Positions 19,850 through 33,014 of a stretch of 45,871 bases of DNA are shown one piece after another. Source of the DNA: Thermodesulfobacteriota bacterium (GTDB lineage Bacteria; Desulfobacterota_D; UBA1144); contig JAQWMJ010000010.1 in NCBI GenBank assembly GCA_029246845.1, forward strand, positions 1 through 45,871, in the 5' to 3' direction. The notes beneath the pieces are model-generated. The model did no database searches. It saw nothing but the letters and a program-made list of their open reading frames with translations, and was not told the DNA's origin. The position numbers and the translations under genes are program-made. Numbering within the stretch: position 1 is the stretch's first letter; the number at the start of each line of letters is the position of its first letter.

Positions 19850-20884
19850 TTATTCGTTTGATCCCAAAATATCATATCCTGTAATAGACTTACTTTTTTC
19901 CGCCATCAAATCTAAGTACTCTTTATCAACTAATCCAGCAAGATAAGCTTTTGAAACTCTCATTAAAGCAATTTTTGCAGTTGCTTCGTCGATCATTTCT
20001 CCAGTTTCTGGATTAAACATGGAGCCACCACCCATTTCATGGTAAAAATCTAGTTGTTGTTTTGCTTCTTTGATTTGTTGTTCGTTTGGCGTAAAGGCAC
20101 TATTTGATATTACAGCTTGTTGCGGATGTATTACCCATGTTCCATCCATACCGATTAGCGCTGAACCTTGTACTTTCTTTCTTAAACCATCTTCAACTTT
20201 AGCCACTTGCTCGGGAGTATCGTCTTTTCTCCATAGGCCCAGATAAACGTTATCGATAGCATGAAGACCTGCAGCTTTTGCTGCTGTTATAACAGCCTTT
20301 TTTTCATAATAGAAAACTTCATTTTGAATATCTAAGCAAGCACTAGGATCAACCCCTAGTTCCGCAGTATAGTCCGCAATCCCAAAAATTAATCCTGCCA
20401 TTCTCGGAGATGCTTTAGCCATCTCAAATGCATACTCCAAAGCTCTAGGTCTCTCAATTAAGGCTTCTATGGCTAATTTTGTTTTCCATCCATGCTTTGC
20501 TTCTAGTTCATCTAAAGTATCTGACACTAACTTTACATCTTCAGGCCCATTACATTTAGGAATTATTATTCCATGAAATTTATCTACAGCTCCACTTAAA
20601 ACGGCTTCCATGTCACCTCTAAAAAATTCTGATCTTAGATTGTTAGGTCTGACAGTTATAACTTTTTTACCAAAATCCAATGTATTTAAAGCTTCAACCA
20701 TTGTAGCCCTACTTTTGTCGCCCTTGAATTCATATGGGCATGCATCTTCTAGGTCAGCCATTACATGGTCGACTGGAGTCTTCTCAGGATTAGCTGCATT
20801 AGTATGAAGCTTCATATTATGTCCCGGGTATGTCAATTCTGTTCTTGGTACTACTACTCTTGTTCCTTCGTCTAATATAAACAA
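19850..20884 (-). CDS. HpcH/HpaI-CitE family C-C lyase, malyl-CoA/beta-methylmalyl-CoA lyase-like
   Basis: 344 aa with a CitE/Mcl-like pattern (ADLEDA, IIPKCNGPEDV, IEALIERPRAL, GIADY). TTG start with AGGAGGAA 6 nt upstream. Confidence 0.65.
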   Translation of the reverse strand: MFILDEGTRVVVPRTELTYPGHNMKLHTNAANPEKTPVDHVMADLEDACPYEFKGDKSRATMVEALNTLDFGKKVITVRPNNLRSEFFRGDMEAVLSGAVDKFHGIIIPKCNGPEDVKLVSDTLDELEAKHGWKTKLAIEALIERPRALEYAFEMAKASPRMAGLIFGIADYTAELGVDPSACLDIQNEVFYYEKKAVITAAKAAGLHAIDNVYLGLWRKDDTPEQVAKVEDGLRKKVQGSALIGMDGTWVIHPQQAVISNSAFTPNEQQIKEAKQQLDFYHEMGGGSMFNPETGEMIDEATAKIALMRVSKAYLAGLVDKEYLDLMAEKSKSITGYDILGSNE

Positions 20885-25797: not shown

Positions 25798-26421
25798 TCA
25801 CTCATGCAGCCCACACTCTCTCTTTTCTTCTACTTTGGTAGGGTCATAATAATCAAATTCATTCTTTAGTCTATGTTCTTTCATGTAAAAGTCTAAATCC
25901 TTATCAGACCAAAAATAAAAAGGGCTAAGCTTTAATAAACCATCCTTAGTTTTACTTGCAATACCTATGGTATCTCTAAATTTCGTTTGACCTTTTCTAA
26001 GATTTGTAATCCAGAGATCAGGACTTATATCCGACATTGCTCTTCTGAATGGCTCTAGTTTAACTTGATCCGTGAATTCTTTATGTTGGGGGTCTATAAT
26101 ATCTGGAATATCGCCCATAAAAACAGACCGATATTCCTTTGTTTGCCTTGGAACATATAAGAGTATGTTAAGTTTTAGCTCCGAGATAATTTTTTCAGCA
26201 AAAAGATAAGTTGCTTTTGTGTTGTAACCTGTATCACACCAAACAACTTTAATGTCTGGTTTAGCTTTTATTGCTAGGTGTAATATTGCAGCTTCATAGG
26301 GTCTAAAGTTTGTAGTAACAATTGGATTTCGACTTCCTTTTAATCCCCATTTAATTATATCTATAGGAGTCTTATCTTTAAGCTCAGCATTTAAGGAAGT
26401 CAGATCTTTAATACTATTCAT
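25798..26421 (-). CDS. cysH: Phosphoadenosine phosphosulfate (PAPS)-type sulfonucleotide reductase
   Basis: PAPS_reduct fold and the C-terminal catalytic motif KRECGLHE. Only 2 Cys in total, so the CC...CxxC Fe-S motifs of APS reductases are absent. Confidence 0.85.
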   Translation of the reverse strand: MNSIKDLTSLNAELKDKTPIDIIKWGLKGSRNPIVTTNFRPYEAAILHLAIKAKPDIKVVWCDTGYNTKATYLFAEKIISELKLNILLYVPRQTKEYRSVFMGDIPDIIDPQHKEFTDQVKLEPFRRAMSDISPDLWITNLRKGQTKFRDTIGIASKTKDGLLKLSPFYFWSDKDLDFYMKEHRLKNEFDYYDPTKVEEKRECGLHE

Positions 26422-27401
26422 ATTATTTCCCCGATAATAACGTTAGTTATTAGATATGATATTACGATACAGATTATTGGTGCAAGAATCCAAAATGTTA
26501 TAATTTGTGCAACACCTTTCTTTTTAAATGTCTTTTTGAATCCTGAGGTTGAACAAGAAAATCCAATTATTCCCGAAGTTATTATCTCAGCCATAGAAAT
26601 AGGGATTCCATAGAATGATGCAAAAGCAAGAAAAAATCCTCCTGTAAAATTAACAGAAATCGCTCTTATTATTGACAAGGATGTTATTTTGGTGGCTATA
26701 TTTTCAATAATAGCTCCCCCAAATATTAGAGCTCCTAATGCCATAAAGAAGCCAGATATCAGAGCTGCATCTCCTGCTGATATAACATTAAGGCCAACAA
26801 TAGGGGCTGCAGCATTAGCGGCATTATTTGCTCCTGCAAAGAGAGCTAAGAAGCAGGCAGAAGATATAAGTAAGAATTTTAAAGAGAAGGATATTTTTTG
26901 AGTCTTTCTCCCGTCCATACTTATTAACTTGTCGACTATTTCAAAATATACATACTTTCCAATCAGATAATTTAAAAGCCAGATGGCAATTGGAGTAATC
27001 AGCCACCATGCAATTATTTCGCTTGCCTTTCCTAAGTTAAGAGAATTTAAACTTAATCCTATTCCAAATATAGTACAAACAACTACGTGCGTGGTTGCAA
27101 TAGGTATTTTAGACTTATTAGCTACAAATATTGAAACTATTGGAATAATTAGAACTAAATAAATTAAATTGGATTTTAAACTAAGAAAATCAATATCAAG
27201 CAAGTTCTTTCCAACAGTGGTCACAACTTTCTCTCCCCCAAGCGAAGCTCCCAGGAAAACAAATATAAAAACCAGTGAGACTGCACCTAGCTTTGAAAGC
27301 ATTTTTGCGCCATATACTGTTGACATAGATGTTGAAGCGTTGTTTGCGCCTATATTAAATGCCAAGATTAAGCTTAAGAGAGATATAAGAGCAATCTCCA
27401 T
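26418..27401 (-). CDS. PiT (PHO4) family anion permease embedded in the cys operon, probable sulfate permease of the CysP type
   Basis: Two-fold repeat with GANNAS.S and GANNAANAAAP signatures (PiT GANDVAN-like). About 10 TM helices. Start overlaps the cysN stop (TAATG) and stop overlaps the cysH start (ATGA). Confidence 0.75.
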   Translation of the reverse strand: MEIALISLLSLILAFNIGANNASTSMSTVYGAKMLSKLGAVSLVFIFVFLGASLGGEKVVTTVGKNLLDIDFLSLKSNLIYLVLIIPIVSIFVANKSKIPIATTHVVVCTIFGIGLSLNSLNLGKASEIIAWWLITPIAIWLLNYLIGKYVYFEIVDKLISMDGRKTQKISFSLKFLLISSACFLALFAGANNAANAAAPIVGLNVISAGDAALISGFFMALGALIFGGAIIENIATKITSLSIIRAISVNFTGGFFLAFASFYGIPISMAEIITSGIIGFSCSTSGFKKTFKKKGVAQIITFWILAPIICIVISYLITNVIIGEII

Positions 27402-28654
27402 TATTTTATAATTCCTGCAGCAACAGTATTATTTGATTCAATATCGATAATAATAAATGAACCAAGCTCTTTATTTGATTCATATGTATCGTAGACAATA
27501 TTATTTTGGATTTTTATTTCTACCTGACCAATATCGTTCATTCTAAATGTATCATCAGGCTCCACTTCTTTCAGTGATTCAATTTTTATCTTATTTATCA
27601 ATTTGTTTATTAAAATTTTAGAACTCTTATTGGAGTGCTTCATTATATATTTTTTTTTTAATTTTAGCTCTTCCTCACCCATCCAGCATATCTGTGACAA
27701 TATTGTATCGTTAATCTTTAGGGCATAGTTTAAGGATGCTATAACATCACCACGTGAGATTTCTAGCTCATCTTCTAGTAATAATGTTCCCGATCGACCC
27801 TTATTTATTTCTTGACCGTATTGACCAGACTCAATTATATTTTTTATTTTTGATTCTTTCTGAGCCGGCAAGATTTTAACTTTATCACCAATTTTAAATC
27901 TTCCCGATGTAACCATTCCCATATAACCACGAAAATCTTTAATTTCCTCATTGTCTACCCTAGATATGAGTTGAACGGGAAAGCAGGATTTTCTGTCATC
28001 TTCTTCACGATATATTTTAGTATTTTCAAGTATATGAATTAACGTGTCCCCTTTGTACCAAGGAAGATTTATTCCTCTATCAACAACCATGTCCCCATTT
28101 AGAGCAGATATAGGTATGAAGTTGATTGAATTGATTGATAAATTGTCGGATAATTCTAAAAAGCTCTTCCTTATATCTATAAATTTTTCTCTATTGTAGT
28201 CAATAAGGTCCATTTTATTTACAGCAACAATTATATTTTTAATTCCTAAAAGGTAACTTATATACAGATGACGTCTGGATTGTTTTAATACACCTTTCCG
28301 TGAGTCAATTAGTATAATTGCCAAGCTAGAGTTACTAGCACCGGTAAACATATTACGAGTATATTCTTCATGACCAGGAGTATCTGCAATGATAAATTTC
28401 CTTTTGGGCGTAGAGAAATACCTATATGCTACATCAATTGTAATTCCTTGTTCTCGCTCATCTTTAAGTCCATCTGTCAGATGAGCAAGATCTATTTCTT
28501 TTAGATTCTTAGATTTTGAGTCACTTTCAAGTGTTTCTAATTGATCAAGAAATATACCTTTTGAATCGTACAATAATCTTCCTATAAGTGTTGATTTACC
28601 GTCATCGACGCTTCCTGCAGTAGCAAATCTTAAAATCTCAATTGAATCACTCAT
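27401..28654 (-). CDS. cysN: Sulfate adenylyltransferase subunit 1 (GTPase), without a fused APS-kinase domain
   Basis: GSVDDGKSTLIGRLL, DTPGH and NKMD GTPase motifs. I place the start at the ATG at 28654 (MSDSIEILRF), 1 nt after the cysD stop. The tracked ORF's extra 34 codons lie inside cysD. Confidence 0.9.
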   Translation of the reverse strand: MSDSIEILRFATAGSVDDGKSTLIGRLLYDSKGIFLDQLETLESDSKSKNLKEIDLAHLTDGLKDEREQGITIDVAYRYFSTPKRKFIIADTPGHEEYTRNMFTGASNSSLAIILIDSRKGVLKQSRRHLYISYLLGIKNIIVAVNKMDLIDYNREKFIDIRKSFLELSDNLSINSINFIPISALNGDMVVDRGINLPWYKGDTLIHILENTKIYREEDDRKSCFPVQLISRVDNEEIKDFRGYMGMVTSGRFKIGDKVKILPAQKESKIKNIIESGQYGQEINKGRSGTLLLEDELEISRGDVIASLNYALKINDTILSQICWMGEEELKLKKKYIMKHSNKSSKILINKLINKIKIESLKEVEPDDTFRMNDIGQVEIKIQNNIVYDTYESNKELGSFIIIDIESNNTVAAGIIK

Positions 28655-28655
28655 A

Positions 28656-29540
28656 TTAGAAATAACCTTCTCTTTTTTTATCTTCCATTGAGTTGGAACC
28701 GTGATCAATAATCCTAGTCTCACGCTCACTTCTTTTGGCTTTAATAGTCTCTTCAATTATCATATCTACATTAGTTGCATTAGAACGAACCGCACCTGTA
28801 CATGGCATACAGCCTAGGGATCTAAATCTTGATTCAACCATAGTTGAGCGCTGATTTCCTGAACCCTCAGCAGGTATTAGGCTTTTATCTTGTATTATCA
28901 TATTTCTATTTTTTGAAAAATATAAAGGGGTAATTTCTATTTTTTCATGTTTAATATAATTCCAAATATCTGTTTCTGTCCAACTAGATAAAGGGAAAAT
29001 TCTTACAGATTCGTTTTCGTCAATTTCTCCGTTAAAAATGTTCCATAATTCTGGTTTTTGTGACTTAGGATTCCATTGACCAAAGGTGTCACGAAAAGAG
29101 AAAATTCTTTCTTTGGCACGTGACTTTTCTTCATCTCTCCTTGCTCCACCTATAGCTGCATTAAAATTGTATTTATCCAGAGCATCTAGTAAGGCTTGAG
29201 TTTTTAATGCTCCACAGCATTTTGCAATTCCATTTTTGGAAGGATGGAATCCTTTTTCTATTGCATCTTCATTTCTGTATATAATTAAATTTGCTCCAAT
29301 TTCTTTAGTAAACGAATCTCTGAATTCATACATCTCTCTAAATTTATATCCTGTATCCACATGAAGTAATGGAAAAGGAATCTTTGACGGAAAGAAAGCT
29401 TTCCTGGCTAGATGAAGCATTACACTTGAGTCCTTACCTACAGAATATAGCATTACAGGTTTTTTAAATTCTGCGACAACCTCTCTAAGAATGAATATTG
29501 CTTCACTTTCTAATTCTTTTAGATATAACTTTTTTTTCAT
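28656..29540 (-). CDS. cysD: Sulfate adenylyltransferase subunit 2
   Basis: LKELESEAIFILREV, SVGKDSSVMLHL, and C-terminal ..RIIDHGS..MEDKKREGYF typical of CysD. Confidence 0.92.
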   Translation of the reverse strand: MKKKLYLKELESEAIFILREVVAEFKKPVMLYSVGKDSSVMLHLARKAFFPSKIPFPLLHVDTGYKFREMYEFRDSFTKEIGANLIIYRNEDAIEKGFHPSKNGIAKCCGALKTQALLDALDKYNFNAAIGGARRDEEKSRAKERIFSFRDTFGQWNPKSQKPELWNIFNGEIDENESVRIFPLSSWTETDIWNYIKHEKIEITPLYFSKNRNMIIQDKSLIPAEGSGNQRSTMVESRFRSLGCMPCTGAVRSNATNVDMIIEETIKAKRSERETRIIDHGSNSMEDKKREGYF

Positions 29541-31232
29541 TTATACGACAACATTCCTTAGAACTTCGAAGTCCTCAATATTGCAGAAATCGCCGAAGGC
29601 TTGTTCTTGATCTTTTCTATTTGCCTTCCAATAGCTTATTAATTTCGATATTTTATCTGCTAGTTCCTTATCATCTACAAGTTCTAAAAATAATCTATTA
29701 AGCCTCGTCCCATAAAAATCGCCACCTAAATAAATGTTATATTTGTTAGCTGTTGCGCCAATTAAGCCAATTTCTGATACTGGTGGTCTAGAGCAAGAGT
29801 TAGGACATCCACTCATTCTAATTTTTATTTTTTCATTACCAAAACCTCTAAGATCTAATTGGTCTATGAGAGAAGGAAGGAATCTTTCAGCTTCTGCAAC
29901 CGCAAGACTACATGTTGGGAGTGCCGGGCAGGCCATCGATGCCAATCTTAGATTAGAGTATCTCTCGTTTGTATCAATATTATTCTTCTCTAATAGGCTA
30001 TTAATATCCTCTATGTTTTCTTTATCAATATTGACTAGAATCAAGTCCTGTGTAGCAGTAAGCCTAGTTTCCACATTATGCTTTTTAATGATTTCAGCTA
30101 AACCAGATTTCAGCTTAACTGTTTCAGTATCTTTTATACGACCGTTTTCAATAAAAATTCCACAATAGAATTTATTTTCTTGTTTTTGTTTATGCCATCC
30201 ATAGTAGTTTTCTATTCTGGCTACTGATTTCTTAATATATTTTTCTAATTTAAAGTTTATTCTTGATTCCAGCTCGATTTTAAACTTTTCTATTCCCCAG
30301 TCTTCTAGTAGGTACTTCATCCTTGCTTGTTTTCTGTCGGTCCTTACACCGTAGTCTCTCTGAATTGCTATTATACCCTTTACAACTTCTATAACTTCAC
30401 TTTCCTTACACATGCCAAGCTCATCAGCGAGCCTAGGAAAGGTTTGAGTCTGCCTGTGATGACTGCCTAGTCCACCACCCACCAGGATATTAAAGTACTT
30501 ATTTTTTCCCTCTATGATGGGTAATATTCCAATATCTTGTGTATATATATCAATAGAGTTGTCTAATTGATGCCCTATGCCTATTTTAAACTTTCTTGGT
30601 AAATAAGTTTTTTTATAGAGAGAATCTTCTTCGATTTTGTCTCTATTTGCCTTAGTTGAAACCTTTTCTCCATCAACCCATATCTCATAATATCCTTTTG
30701 ATTTAGCTAATGTAGCCTGGTCAATTTCCTTAGCTAGAGACTGTGAGTCATAGCTGAGGTCTTCTCTAATATCAGATATAGGCGATGCAACAGTATTCCT
30801 AACTATATCTCCACAAGCTCCATAAGAAGTTATAAGATTTTCGTTTAAAGTTTTAACTAATTGCTTTAGATTCTTTTTGCCAATTCCATGAAATTGAAAG
30901 CACTCCCTGGTTGTAATTCTAAGGGTGGGATTTGACCATTTATTTGTAATATCATCCATTATGAGCCATTGCTGTGGAGTTATATTTCCTCCACCTGGAT
31001 TTTTTGTTCTAATCATAAAGCTATAATCTTTCTCTAAGCGAGCTTTCATTAAAGCTTTTCTTTTGTCTCGATCATCTTGTTGATAAATTCCATGAAACTT
31101 TAGTACTTGTTCGTTGTCGCCTGAAAATTTAATAGAATCTTGACTAGATAGCTCTTCTTCAATTGTTCCTCTCAGCCCATCACTAGACTCTTTTATTCCT
31201 TCGTTTTTAACTAATTTTACTTCTTTTTTCAT
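29541..31232 (-). CDS. cysI: Assimilatory sulfite reductase hemoprotein (siroheme/4Fe-4S; CysI or ferredoxin-Sir type)
   Basis: LKFHGIYQQDDRD, and cluster/siroheme Cys motifs CPALPTC and SGCPNSCSRP. AGGAGAGG RBS. No cysJ in the window. Confidence 0.88.
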   Translation of the reverse strand: MKKEVKLVKNEGIKESSDGLRGTIEEELSSQDSIKFSGDNEQVLKFHGIYQQDDRDKRKALMKARLEKDYSFMIRTKNPGGGNITPQQWLIMDDITNKWSNPTLRITTRECFQFHGIGKKNLKQLVKTLNENLITSYGACGDIVRNTVASPISDIREDLSYDSQSLAKEIDQATLAKSKGYYEIWVDGEKVSTKANRDKIEEDSLYKKTYLPRKFKIGIGHQLDNSIDIYTQDIGILPIIEGKNKYFNILVGGGLGSHHRQTQTFPRLADELGMCKESEVIEVVKGIIAIQRDYGVRTDRKQARMKYLLEDWGIEKFKIELESRINFKLEKYIKKSVARIENYYGWHKQKQENKFYCGIFIENGRIKDTETVKLKSGLAEIIKKHNVETRLTATQDLILVNIDKENIEDINSLLEKNNIDTNERYSNLRLASMACPALPTCSLAVAEAERFLPSLIDQLDLRGFGNEKIKIRMSGCPNSCSRPPVSEIGLIGATANKYNIYLGGDFYGTRLNRLFLELVDDKELADKISKLISYWKANRKDQEQAFGDFCNIEDFEVLRNVVV

Positions 31233-31540
31233 TTTACCTCTCCTAAATTTAAAAATTAATATGTGAATCCAATTGGTAACAACCTCAAAGAAAATTATCG
31301 ATTTTGATAAAATTTTTAACTAAAAGTGTTAAATTGGATTTTTTGCTAGCTACAACAGCAAGAGTTTGTAAAGTTAGGAGAACATAAATCTTTTCCTTTT
31401 AAAAATAAAAGAATATTTAGATTAACCATAACGAAACTCCTGAAATTAATTTTTTAACCCTAAGAGGAAAAGAACTTACAAGTTCCCTTGCTCGGCTTAG
31501 CAGTTATTTAAAGTCGTTGCAAGTAGAGTTAAATGACGAC
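31233..31540 (-). promoter_or_regulatory. Long (~300 nt) 5' leader of the cysI-cysD-cysN-PiT-cysH operon with a uORF and an anti-SD element
   Basis: Lies between the candidate promoter (31547-31576) and the cysI ATG. Contains a nested stem-loop (31460-31500), the uORF (31346-31429), and TCTCCTAA (31381-31374) complementary to the cysI SD TTAGGAGA (31246-31239). Confidence 0.45.
31346..31429 (-). CDS. Candidate leader peptide of the cys operon, 27 aa: MVNLNILLFLKGKDLCSPNFTNSCCCS
   Basis: My own translation of the minus strand. ATG at 31429-31427, AGGAG at 31441-31437 (7-nt spacer), TAG at 31348-31346. Codons 16, 24, 25 and 26 are Cys (TGT, TGC, TGT, TGT). Too short for the ORF track. Confidence 0.5.
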   Translation of the reverse strand: MVNLNILLFLKGKDLCSPNFTNSCCCS

Positions 31541-31546
31541 AATTTG

Positions 31547-31576
31547 ATTATAGCACTATATGTTCTTAAACAGCAA
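31547..31576 (-). promoter_or_regulatory. Candidate extended -10 promoter of the cys operon (TTGCTG-18 nt-TGcTATAAT)
   Basis: The minus strand reads cTTGCTGtttaagaacatatagTGcTATAATcaaattg, with an A/T-rich tract upstream. Confidence 0.4.
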
Positions 31577-31615
31577 GTTTTTTTAAAAAAATTAATATGA
31601 TATTATTATTTTTCG

Positions 31616-32527
31616 ATGGATAAAATTAATTTCGAGTTAATTAGCTTTTATAAATTTCTCCCTATTAAGGACCCTGATAAATTAAAAGATATGCTTTTTG
31701 TCTTATGTAAAAAATCTAAAATTCTTGGAACTATAATTGTATCAAAAGAGGGTGTAAATGGTATGCTAGCTGGGAGCAGCACTTCTTTAAATACTGCAAT
31801 TTCTTTTTTTAGCAAACTAGGTTTTTCTATTGAGGATTTTAAATTCTCTAGAACTAATATTAAGCCTTTTAAAAGACTAAGGATAAAGATAAGAGAAGAA
31901 CTCATTAGCTTAGGTTATGTAAAACTATCAAATCCAAATGAAGCTGTAGGTAAGTATGTTGATCCGGAGGATTGGAATAATTTAATAAGCAAGAAAGACC
32001 TAGTGTTAATTGATACTAGAAATAAGTATGAAACTTCTATTGGAACTTTTAATGGAGCAATCTTGCCACCTATGAAAAATTTCAAAGAATTTCCTGATTT
32101 TATAAAGAACAATAATATCTCAAAAGATGCCAGTATTGCGATGTTCTGTACTGGTGGGATTAGATGTGAGAAAGCCAGTGCTTATTTGTTGAAGATTGGA
32201 TTTAAAGATGTTTCGCACTTGAAAGGTGGAATAATAAAGTATTTGGAAAAAGTATCAAAAGAGGATTCAAAATGGGAAGGTGAATGTTTTGTTTTTGACA
32301 ATAGAGTATCAATTGAACAAGATTTAACACAAGGAAACTATTTAAACTGCAATGGTTGCGGAAAGCCTTTAAGAAAGGAGGAGGTTACCCACCCTAAATA
32401 CAAAAAAGGCGTTTCATGCCCTAAATGTTATGATAATTTAACTAAAGAGAAAATAGAAAGTTCATCTGAAAGACAGAAGCAGGTTGAACTTTCAGAAAAA
32501 AGAGGTGAAGTGCATATTGGAGAGTAA
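31616..32527 (+). CDS. trhO: Rhodanese-domain protein of the UPF0176/YceA family (tRNA uridine-34 hydroxylase TrhO)
   Basis: N-terminal YceA-like domain, a rhodanese active-site loop FCTGGIRCEKAS, and a C-terminal Cys-rich tail (CNGCGKP..CPKC). Confidence 0.8.
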   Translation: MDKINFELISFYKFLPIKDPDKLKDMLFVLCKKSKILGTIIVSKEGVNGMLAGSSTSLNTAISFFSKLGFSIEDFKFSRTNIKPFKRLRIKIREELISLGYVKLSNPNEAVGKYVDPEDWNNLISKKDLVLIDTRNKYETSIGTFNGAILPPMKNFKEFPDFIKNNNISKDASIAMFCTGGIRCEKASAYLLKIGFKDVSHLKGGIIKYLEKVSKEDSKWEGECFVFDNRVSIEQDLTQGNYLNCNGCGKPLRKEEVTHPKYKKGVSCPKCYDNLTKEKIESSSERQKQVELSEKRGEVHIGE

Positions 32528-33014
32528 GAAGTTCTTATTAATTATACTTTTAACTTTGTTTTCTTGTAATTCAAGCGATCAAGTGTATCAAGCAGAAGGT
32601 GTTTTTGTTAATTCCGCAAATGTTAAAATAGGAACAGTTGAGATAGTTCAGCAAGGAGATGGATCAAACTTTAGGATTCATATTGATACTTTAAAGCCAG
32701 GTTTTTATGCAATGCATATCCACGAGAAAGGTGAGTGTGCTTACCCTAGCTTTCTAACCTCTGGCGGTCACCATGGAATAAAAAAAGATGGTACTTTCTA
32801 TGGCGACTTCCATCCTATTAATGTAAAAAATGAAGTAAGTAAGTACACTGGAAAATTGAAGAAGTTTAGTCAAATAATTTTCCTTAAAGATGTTCACCTA
32901 AATCCCGATTCCAAATTTACCATTATGGACAATGACAGATCTTCAATAATTATTCATGAGAGTGCTCAAGGTGGAAAAAGAATAGCCTGTGCTGATTTGT
33001 ATAAGAAGTACTAA
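32517..33014 (+). CDS. sodC: Cu,Zn superoxide dismutase, probable lipoprotein
   Basis: HIHEKGEC, GGH and SIIIHE metal/active-site patterns. Lipobox LFSC. The start is ambiguous: TTG 32484 (tracked, 44-nt overlap with trhO), GTG 32505, or TTG 32517 with AGAGGTG 9 nt upstream. Confidence 0.75.
   Translation: MESKKFLLIILLTLFSCNSSDQVYQAEGVFVNSANVKIGTVEIVQQGDGSNFRIHIDTLKPGFYAMHIHEKGECAYPSFLTSGGHHGIKKDGTFYGDFHPINVKNEVSKYTGKLKKFSQIIFLKDVHLNPDSKFTIMDNDRSSIIIHESAQGGKRIACADLYKKY

Follow-up and report, generated by a model that had tools for sequence, protein, structure and literature searches.

A candidate two-input RNA leader of a marine sulfate-assimilation operon: a probable SAM-II-class aptamer followed by a conserved poly-cysteine open reading frame

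The window, i.e. the whole stretch of DNA analysed here, is contig JAQWMJ010000010.1 of the Thermodesulfobacteriota bacterium UBA1144 (45,871 nucleotides, nt; G+C content 33%). On its minus strand lies a sulfate-assimilation operon with the order cysI-cysD-cysN-permease-cysH, which had been proposed in the original prediction, a note made from the sequence of the window, and which is confirmed by Pfam and NCBIfam. Our analysis focuses on the leader of this operon, in which a probable riboswitch aptamer of the SAM-II class (SAM, S-adenosylmethionine) is followed by a short open reading frame (ORF) ending in a run of cysteine codons. The features of the leader and the operon are listed below.

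31547-31576, minus strand: predicted sigma-70 promoter, with -35 hexamer TTGCTG (31576-31571), 18-nt spacer and extended -10 element TGcTATAAT (TG 31555-31554, TATAAT 31552-31547)
31491-31540, minus strand: probable SAM-II-class riboswitch aptamer, a permissive match to Rfam RF00521
31462-31489, minus strand: predicted expression platform, consisting of hairpin strand AAGGGAACU (31489-31481), loop UGUA and hairpin strand AGUUCUUUU (31476-31468), then the anti-Shine-Dalgarno (anti-SD) sequence CCUCUU (31467-31462); the hairpin is present in the minimum free energy (MFE) fold
31437-31441, minus strand: Shine-Dalgarno (SD) sequence AGGAG of the leader ORF, followed by the 7-nt spacer TTTCGTT and ATG 31429-31427
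31346-31429, minus strand: leader ORF of 27 codons plus TAG, MVNLNILLFLKGKDLCSPNFTNSCCCS, read from the sequence and kept in 22 distinct leaders
31374-31382, minus strand: predicted cysI anti-SD within the leader ORF, UUCUCCUAA (codons 16-19), pairing with UUAGGAGAG (31246-31238)
31361-31369, minus strand: 3' strand of helix H1, ACAAACUCU (codons Thr-Asn-Ser just before the Cys run), pairing with the SD and spacer of the ORF, GGAGUUUCGU (31440-31431)
31352-31360, minus strand: Cys-Cys-Cys run UGC UGU UGU, proposed ribosome pause site; an additional Cys codon, TGT, lies at 31384-31382
31343-31361, minus strand: hairpin A, a local fold of Cys codons UUGCU (31361-31357) with AGCAA (31347-31343), overlapping the stop codon
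31265-31341, minus strand: long stem-loop between leader ORF and cysI, with arms AAUCCAAUUUAACA (31340-31327) and UGUUACCAAUUGGAUU (31281-31266) and a variable interior
31230-31244, minus strand: ribosome-binding site (RBS) of cysI, with SD AGGAGAGG (31244-31237) and ATG 31232-31230, read from the sequence
25798-31232, minus strand: regulated operon (Pfam and NCBIfam), with the following five genes
31232-29541, minus strand: sulfite reductase hemoprotein, cysI (NCBIfam, 669 bits)
29540-28656, minus strand: cysD (Pfam/NCBIfam)
28756-27401, minus strand: cysN (Pfam/NCBIfam)
27401-26418, minus strand: PHO4/CysP-type sulfate permease (Pfam/NCBIfam)
26421-25798, minus strand: PAPS/APS reductase (Pfam/NCBIfam)

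According to the promoter read from the sequence, the transcript is predicted to start at about 31540, with a leader of about 308 nt. The original prediction had named this promoter and a leader of about 300 nt; the sequence is present and the length agrees, but a consensus scan does not list the promoter, whose first hexamer has four of six matches. The arrangement TTGnTG...TGCTATAAT, located 6-8 nt ahead of the conserved element at the 5' end of the leader, recurs in L001-L005 and L009 (loci of relatives are cited by their L numbers).

The leader ORF ends with TAG at 31348-31346, leaving a gap of 113 nt to the ATG of cysI (31232), and the positions previously given for its SD, spacer, start, Cys codons, stop and distance to cysI all match the minus-strand sequence. 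What does not hold for one sequence is the argument that a CCC run at this locus is unlikely to arise by chance. Cysteine accounts for 1.27% of the residues in the long ORFs of the window, with no CCC in 13,985 residues; TGYTGYTGY occurs six times in the window, and CCC is encoded by two out of 611 small ORFs (15-60 residues, all frames). The second of these, MKTCSFCCCYNSLFFIIENFILNI (20262-20336, plus strand), lies antisense within an ORF of 344 residues (19850-20884, minus strand); it is a chance occurrence and provides a control for the single-sequence argument. The leader ORF rises above chance because it is conserved among relatives.

These relatives were obtained from two sources. A scan with the CysI protein, one genome per species, led to marine metagenome-assembled genomes (MAGs) that are labeled Candidatus Dadabacteria UBA1144, Deltaproteobacteria TMED58, or just 'bacterium'; a metagenome scan with a pattern built from the conserved 5' element added 62 further loci. 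Combining both scans, we obtained 22 distinct leaders, each with an SD-led ORF that is 21-29 codons long. All MAGs down to 72% CysI identity carry the same leader. It was not found in the next relatives, at 68-70% CysI identity and lower, and no poly-Cys ORF is located upstream of cysI in the more distant relatives L006-L021.

The original prediction had expected that in orthologous leaders a short ORF behind an SD would be retained together with its clustered Cys codons and that the remaining positions would vary, and this is clearly the pattern of the 22 distinct leaders. The last two cysteines of the terminal run are present in all of them and all three in 21; L005 and L051 possess a run of five. 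Between run and stop lie one to three codons throughout, even though the length of the ORF ranges from 21 to 29 codons. A second Cys cluster, 8-10 codons upstream of the run, exists in 16 of the 22 leaders, and Cys is encoded by TGT 106 times and by TGC 12 times. The SD region GGAGUUUGUUAUG is almost invariant. Not a single in-frame stop interrupts the ORF in any leader, whereas the two alternative frames contain 33 and 69 stops across these spans. Between closely related pairs, codon differences in the leader ORF are 13 synonymous and 32 nonsynonymous, compared with 179 and 41 in the downstream gene (its first 120 codons), i.e. a nonsynonymous-to-synonymous ratio of 2.5 versus 0.23. The peptide is conserved only in its cysteines and in the residues that overlap helix H1. 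An open frame with retained Cys codons and a drifting remainder is the signature of a regulatory leader ORF. That the ORF is a product of chance and has no function is hardly conceivable: another CCC ORF did arise by chance in the same 46 kb, but the open frame and the invariant cysteines in 22 leaders and two gene contexts refute this explanation.

The same numbers bear on the idea that the ORF encodes a functional small Cys-rich peptide, for example one carrying metal, persulfide or sulfur, which would be co-expressed with sulfur genes under SAM control and would not be a sensor. Two Cys clusters (C/CC/CCC ... CCC) are kept, and the run is followed by a conserved Asn; the N-terminal half of the peptide has a moderate hydrophobicity, and the ORF adjoins sulfur genes. 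We regard this proposal as very improbable, given that nothing is conserved beyond the cysteines and the H1-overlapping residues (ratio 2.5 vs 0.23), that the length ranges from 21 to 29 residues, and that four to eight cysteines per peptide would be costly under sulfur shortage, while H1 seems built to stop translation. The best reading of the ORF is that it senses cysteine, which is supported by conservation and not by function.

Two gene contexts were found for the poly-Cys module: the cysI operon in 13 leaders, and in nine leaders a tandem-rhodanese sulfurtransferase, a protein of 280 residues with two rhodanese domains and closest to 3-mercaptopyruvate/thiosulfate sulfurtransferases. The occurrence in two contexts indicates that the module is portable and linked to sulfur acquisition. 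The leader ORFs of the rhodanese-type loci L025, L026, L031, L037, L040, L042, L067, L073, L078 and L082 have two CCC(C) clusters, e.g. MVKTLFVSLISEVDTCCCNFSNLCCCNYK, and the direct repeat UGUUGUUGUAACU occurs twice within the leader ORFs of this type.

The leader begins with a second conserved component. The first 50 nt of the predicted transcript represent a riboswitch-like element, GUCGUCAUUUAACUCUACUUGCAACGAC UUUAAAUAACUGCUAAGCCGAG. Helix P1 is formed by GUCGU (31540-31536) and ACGAC (31517-31513) and encloses the loop CAUUUAACUCUACUUGCA (31535-31518); the linker UUUAAAUAAC plus UGCUAAG follows (31512-31496), and P2a joins CUC of the loop (31528-31526) with GAG of the tail (31493-31491). 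Such a loop-tail pairing is the arrangement described for SAM-II and SAM-V (PMC6061858). A permissive Rfam scan matches RF00521 (SAM_alpha) over the full model at 31550-31476 (23.5 bits, E 0.0047), and relatives score up to 34.8 bits (L030), still below the gathering threshold of 36; at curated Rfam thresholds there is no cis-RNA anywhere in the window. Among 53 distinct copies, P1 is paired in 100%, the closing pair having changed from G-C to A-U in four of them, and P2a (loop CUCU, tail AGAG) is paired in 89.6% of the cells, in comparison with 30-53% in slid controls. The AUUU third strand, UUGCA, the UUAAA-AA linker and GCUAA are core motifs that are invariant in the 53 sequences, although the search pattern partly required them; being invariant, the columns of the triplex core are uninformative. 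With high but not complete confidence we assign the element to the SAM-II class of riboswitches, with SAM as its predicted ligand. The original prediction had described the leader as an ORF only: the ORF is there, but the aptamer at the 5' end was missed, and the platform of this aptamer ends at the RBS of the ORF.

The aptamer occurs in three contexts, namely ahead of poly-Cys leaders, ahead of a thrC-like gene paired with a ThiS-family gene, and on AT-rich marine contigs together with a terminator. The genes concerned correspond to the location expected of a SAM-II riboswitch (the cysI operon, the rhodanese sulfurtransferase, and the thrC-like plus ThiS-like pair), and one subgroup precedes small ORFs with no assigned function.

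In the second context, aptamer and platform stand directly ahead of the thrC-like gene, as in L053 (3238-4865; NCBIfam thrC, 280 bits); L027, L030, L035, L045, L046, L054, L058, L061, L068, L071, L077 and L081 share this arrangement. The thrC-like protein has a Cys-rich N-terminal extension, and its gene is followed by one for a ThiS-family protein of 92 residues ending in AIAGGVS. We consider it plausible that the pair is not a true threonine synthase and instead forms a SAM-controlled route to homocysteine that depends on a sulfur carrier. In L027, L046 and L061 the thrC-like proteins start with MSNSC or MSNSY (AUG UCU AAC UCU UGC...). The end of the leader ORF, ...SNSCCC (window 31366-31352), uses the same SD-paired nucleotides AAC UCU UGY as these starts. 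To judge from these sequences, the resemblance suggests that the poly-Cys leader arose by duplication of the riboswitch-plus-start region of the thrC-like gene.

In the third context, a near-identical aptamer (loop AACUCAAC) precedes a terminator hairpin that is G+C-rich and has a U-run. Such loci are L029 (2496-2672), L052 (528-598), L022, L023, L032, L039, L043, L044, L048-L050, L057, L062, L064, L076 and L083. Several of them contain a second aptamer scoring 35-37 bits on RF01726, and these tandem aptamers resemble the SAM-II/SAM-V arrangement of Pelagibacter; the downstream genes are small ORFs (139-154 residues) without a Pfam or NCBIfam family. In L074 (2861-3100), aptamer and platform are intact and the sequence past GAGUUACAAAA is unlike any of the three contexts, which may stem from a rearrangement or from a join made in assembly. 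L028 (3322-3470) and L066 harbor a more divergent aptamer copy (loop AACCCAAGGCAACUUGCA, P1 UUCGU/GCGAA), about 45 nt ahead of an ORF of 210 residues without a family match.

Aptamer and leader ORF meet in the platform. Its hairpin (31489-31468) varies in stem sequence across relatives while the pairing is kept, and CUUUCCUCUU is conserved. CCUCUU (31467-31462) is mostly trailed by GAGUUACA and then by the SD; as judged from the sequence, CUCU of the platform has two possible partners, the aptamer tail (A/C)GAG and GGAG of the SD. The ATG of the leader ORF is located at +102 to +110 nt from the aptamer motif CAUUUAAC, and that of the thrC-like gene, behind the same platform, at +100 to +108. 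The matching distances indicate that the leader ORF holds the riboswitch-controlled start position. We infer that the platform follows the logic of a three-step translational OFF switch, the direction of which is likewise predicted.

Three helices surround the Cys codons. In H1, GGAGUUUG (31440-31431) pairs with CAAACUCU (31369-31361); RNAduplex computes -7.4 kcal/mol for the window, and in 14 out of 22 leaders no other leader segment is a better partner for the SD region. Substitutions from UCU to UUA or UUG, from AAC to AAU and from AAC to AGC retain the pairing through G-U, sometimes at the expense of the residue (Ser to Leu). Hairpin A has a local folding energy of -4.4 kcal/mol in the window and of -2.6 to -10.8 across the 22 leaders; its 5' arm is the Cys run or the 3' flank of the run in 20 of them (exceptions: L002 and L025), and UUGCU/AGCAA of the window becomes UUGUU/AACAA in L009 and L033. 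The long stem amounts to -13.9 kcal/mol in the window and is predicted in all 13 cysI-type leaders (-7.6 to -15.7 kcal/mol), with arms that co-vary, e.g. CUAAUUUGAUAU/AUAUCAAAUUAG in L009. In rhodanese-type leaders, the 3' arm of a hairpin abuts the SD, and CUAG/CUAG is replaced by CUGG/CCAG. RNAalifold found no consensus on anchored full-leader alignments, owing to length variation. Group-wise alignments recover the long stem and a pairing between CUCUU and the cysI SD; those of the rhodanese type show hairpin A and the SD-sequestering hairpin.

These helices raise the question of whether the riboswitch is all there is. The 3' part of the ORF (CAAACUCU UGU UGU UGU AAC) might be kept as RNA, to form H1 and hairpin A in an extended SAM-II platform, in which case translation would be incidental and the Cys codons a by-product. 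H1 and hairpin A use exactly these nucleotides, the Ser-to-Leu changes that retain G-U pairing speak of constraint at the RNA level, in the sister loci codons 3-4 of the thrC-like gene contain the same AACUC motif, likewise paired with the SD region, and the thermodynamic results for the pausing model, given below, are mixed. What renders this explanation unlikely is that all 22 leaders keep the frame open although the ORF differs in length (the alternative frames have 33 and 69 stops), that SD and ATG are invariant and properly spaced, and that the upstream Cys cluster of 16 leaders lies outside both H1 and hairpin A. Moreover, TGT to TGC changes retain Cys yet alter the pairing, L005 and L051 have expanded the run to five cysteines, and the encoded residue is the pathway's end product, in a layout shared by proven Cys attenuators.

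How the leader ORF might act on cysI is predicted from the pairing of the main RBS. In the window, the best partner of the cysI RBS within the leader is the anti-SD of codons 16-19: UUCUCCUAA/UUAGGAGAG reaches -11.5 kcal/mol and is present in the MFE fold. In general, the main RBS finds its best partners in CUUUCCUCUU of the platform (-9 to -14.6 kcal/mol) and in segments of the last third of the ORF. With the SD of the ORF masked, the cysI SD of the window rises in predicted accessibility from 0.000 to 0.053 once a ribosome occupies the first Cys codon of the run; a rise is also seen in L001, L002, L004 (weakly) and L005, and in L055 it is clear only with two collided ribosomes. A ribosome mask at the stop codon produces no such rise. 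For the rhodanese-type leaders, a four-segment relay was considered and rejected: in nascent-transcript folds, the helix between the post-stop segment and the 5' arm of the SD hairpin is weak (-2.4 to -5.8 kcal/mol).

Alternatively, pausing at the Cys codons might prevent transcription termination ahead of cysI, either as in trp or his attenuation or through Rho. A leader ORF with tandem end-product codons close to its stop agrees with this mechanism, and so does the resemblance of H1 to trpL, where translation is shut off through pairing of the RBS. A U-rich stretch follows the inner hairpin of the long stem in several cysI-type leaders, e.g. in the window (about 31300-31288, UUUUCUUU), L002, L005 and L009, and Rho was suggested for Mycobacterium by Seliverstov et al. 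(PMC1262725). However, the terminator scan of 31000-31900 has no passing candidate, manual inspection of the 22 leaders reveals no consistent U-run after hairpins, and U-tracts are lacking in L003, L004, L055 and every rhodanese-type leader. The spacer, as read from the sequence, is AU-rich with few C and would be a poor Rho site, and the rhodanese-type hairpin that abuts the SD points to translational control. Attenuation of transcription is thus quite unlikely. The analogy to trpL and hisL drawn in the original prediction implies a terminator and an antiterminator and is not supported, as no intrinsic terminator lies between ORF and cysI, neither in the window nor in relatives. Because a terminator is missing and U-runs are inconsistent, translational attenuation is favored, as for the mycobacterial short ORF Ms5788A. 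Of the earlier reading as a cysteine-sensing attenuator, the sensing part gains from the conservation in 22 leaders; the trp-type terminator mechanism is not supported, and the ORF is only half of a composite leader.

In the model that we propose, the aptamer tail (A/C)GAG would pair with CUC(U) of the loop, forming the P2a of the SAM-bound state, or with CCUCUU of the platform (31467-31462). With SAM bound, the tail would be held, CCUCUU would be free to mask the GGAG of the SD, and the leader ORF would stay untranslated; with SAM low, the RBS of the leader ORF would be open. If cysteine is plentiful, the ribosome would then reach the stop codon of the leader ORF. If cysteine is scarce, charged tRNA-Cys would run short and the ribosome would pause on the Cys-Cys-Cys run, where it would cover 31369-31361, the 3' strand of H1, together with the Cys codons, the 5' strand of hairpin A. 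Its occupancy would keep the cysI RBS apart from the pyrimidine-rich anti-SD segments of the ORF's last third, and translation of cysI would go up. The type would be translational attenuation as in ermC or mycobacterial Ms5788A rather than termination of the trp type, and, as net logic, the operon would be fully expressed only if SAM and cysteine are both low. H1 probably restricts translation of the Cys-costly ORF to early rounds per transcript.

Several results weigh against this model. The aptamer of the window, with 23.5 bits, remains below the gathering threshold of 36, and masking the aptamer to mimic the SAM-bound state causes no consistent change in the predicted accessibility of the leader-ORF SD, a test for which nearest-neighbor energies on short AU-rich helices are not discriminating. 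H1 and hairpin A share nucleotides with the Asn-Ser-Cys codons, so that part of the conservation there is at the RNA level and is no proof of Cys sensing. The anti-SD partner of the cysI site shifts between leaders, to CUUUCCUCUU of the platform or to a CUCU-plus-Cys-codon segment. When ribosome masks on the first or last Cys or on the stop are combined with equilibrium folding, the main SD opens in about 8 of the 17 leaders tested; there is no ribosome-mask effect in L003, L009, L033, L047 and most rhodanese-type leaders, and the SD-sequestering hairpin of the latter remains closed in most simulations. No intrinsic terminator was detected in the scanned interval (31000-31900). Finally, the host lineage is uncultured, and the support consists of sequence comparison and folding.

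In view of this evidence, we consider it reasonably probable that the leader combines two inputs in series, a SAM riboswitch and a leader ORF sensing Cys-tRNA, with translational attenuation of the cysI operon as the output; SAM binding, the direction of the switch, the pausing and the link to cysI are the parts that we infer, whereas the sequences show the layout of the leader, its conservation, the open frame, the constraint limited to Cys, H1, hairpin A and the long stem, and the position shared with the start of a riboswitch-controlled gene. A Rho-dependent or kinetic, i.e. co-transcriptional, output to cysI is possible. More tentatively, and with some doubt, we suggest a wider hypothesis: a two-input RNA gate in which the riboswitch licenses the Cys-sensing ORF through a relay of CUCU-like and GGAG-like segments, which serves at least two sulfur-acquisition genes, originated independently of the actinobacterial Cys attenuators, and in which H1 limits the amount of cysteine that the sensor itself uses. 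The relay would run from the aptamer loop to the aptamer tail, the platform anti-SD, the leader-ORF SD, the codons ahead of the Cys run, and the SD of the main gene.

The neighborhood of the leader was also inspected for a protein regulator. The divergent gene at 31616-32527 was examined as a candidate and rejected: it is TrhO-like (UPF0176/rhodanese) and not LysR, and Pfam and NCBIfam annotation of the neighborhood shows no LysR gene near the cysI operon. The divergent region (31616-33014, plus strand) comprises this TrhO-like tRNA hydroxylase/rhodanese gene and then an ORF for Cu/Zn superoxide dismutase. In its longest reading (TTG at 32484), the latter overlaps the end of TrhO by 44 nt; the actual start codon probably lies more downstream.

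Sulfate assimilation is controlled by LysR-type proteins in the textbook case of Gram-negative bacteria, by S-box or T-box RNAs in Firmicutes, and by leaderless poly-Cys ORFs in mycobacteria. The streamlined, uncultured marine lineage studied here appears to regulate it by RNA alone, and two end products, methionine/SAM and cysteine, would be read separately in one leader. If this is true, cysteine-sensing leader ORFs are no actinobacterial peculiarity, SAM-II-class riboswitches extend past their known hosts and targets, and a riboswitch can act through a leader ORF instead of directly on a gene. To our knowledge, this is the first poly-Cys leader known outside Actinobacteria; the literature searched contains no report of this leader arrangement or of riboswitches in Dadabacteria, which is no proof of absence. 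ORFs below annotation length ahead of sulfur genes merit systematic searches, and the Rfam threshold for SAM-II overlooks an entire marine clade of this aptamer.

Among known systems, the closest counterparts of the leader ORF are the actinobacterial poly-Cys leaders. Cys leader peptides have been predicted in Mycobacterium, Propionibacterium and Bifidobacterium (PMC1262725); the statement in the original prediction that poly-Cys attenuators are reported only from mycobacteria was therefore too narrow, although all of these genera are Actinobacteria. Ms5788A and Rv0815A belong to the 'Cys ribulon' of leaderless poly-Cys short ORFs described by Canestrari et al. (bioRxiv 10.1101/834739). For Ms5788A, the same study proved that a ribosome paused on the Cys tract blocks sequestration of the downstream SD, and the operon headed by Ms5788A includes a thiosulfate sulfurtransferase (bioRxiv 10.1101/834739). 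The ORFs of both groups share a Cys run at the 3' end, a distance of about 100 nt to the sulfur or cysteine genes downstream, the lack of a terminator, and the occurrence at several loci; the Ms5788A-cysA2 operon parallels our rhodanese-type leaders in its sulfurtransferase target. In contrast to the leaderless mycobacterial ORFs, the ORF described here is SD-led and lies about 110 nt inside the transcript, behind an aptamer. Its host belongs to another phylum (AT-rich marine MAGs, Candidatus Dadabacteria / TMED58), and the Cys count is three, rarely five, plus a second cluster, versus eight in the mycobacterial ORF. Here the Cys tract pairs with the stop-codon region and the flanking codons with the SD of the ORF itself, and, unlike in Ms5788A, pairing with the downstream SD is inconsistent. 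As far as its predicted function goes, the leader ORF works like the actinobacterial poly-Cys leaders but is not a strict member of this group.

With the leader-peptide attenuators of the trpL, hisL, leuL and thrL type, the leader has in common a short ORF with its own RBS, the translation of which is predicted from the sequence, and clustered codons for the end product; a terminator/antiterminator did not emerge from the scan (31000-31900). As in ermC and cat, a stalled ribosome in the leader ORF would remodel hairpins and open a downstream SD, and the rhodanese type has segments similar to those of these leaders (the Cys codons and the segment past the stop, CUAG of that segment and CUAG/CUGG, and a hairpin next to the SD). 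Unlike in ermC and cat, the stall signal would be tRNA supply and not a drug, and the predicted alternative helices are weak.

The aptamer, either a member of SAM-II (RF00521) or a close neighbor of it, shares with this class helix P1, the AUUU and CUUGCA motifs of the loop, the UUAAA-AA linker, the GCUAA strand and a short P2a just 3' of it, as well as a marine and AT-rich setting, an association with methionine and sulfur genes, and a position in series with a second sensor. A crystal structure of SAM-II has reportedly been presented by Gilbert et al. The differences from SAM-II are the score below the gathering threshold, a host outside Alphaproteobacteria and Bacteroidetes, and sulfate assimilation as the target; furthermore, the platform is a separate hairpin with an anti-SD, whereas SAM-II has the SD within P2a, and the second sensor is a leader ORF and not an aptamer. 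Such a combination of a ligand-sensing fold with a short ORF is also represented by the mgtA leader of Salmonella, which, according to Park et al. 2010 as cited in PMC6460261, consists of an Mg2+-sensing riboswitch and the proline-codon ORF mgtL. Both leaders join a ligand-sensing fold to a short ORF whose codon-dependent speed alters, or in our case would alter, the fold, so that two inputs lead to one output. They differ in that the inputs are predicted to be SAM and Cys here versus Mg2+ and Pro there, and in that mgtL is located inside the riboswitch and acts on transcription elongation, while the ORF of the cysI leader is located downstream of the aptamer, at the output of its platform, with no terminator seen.

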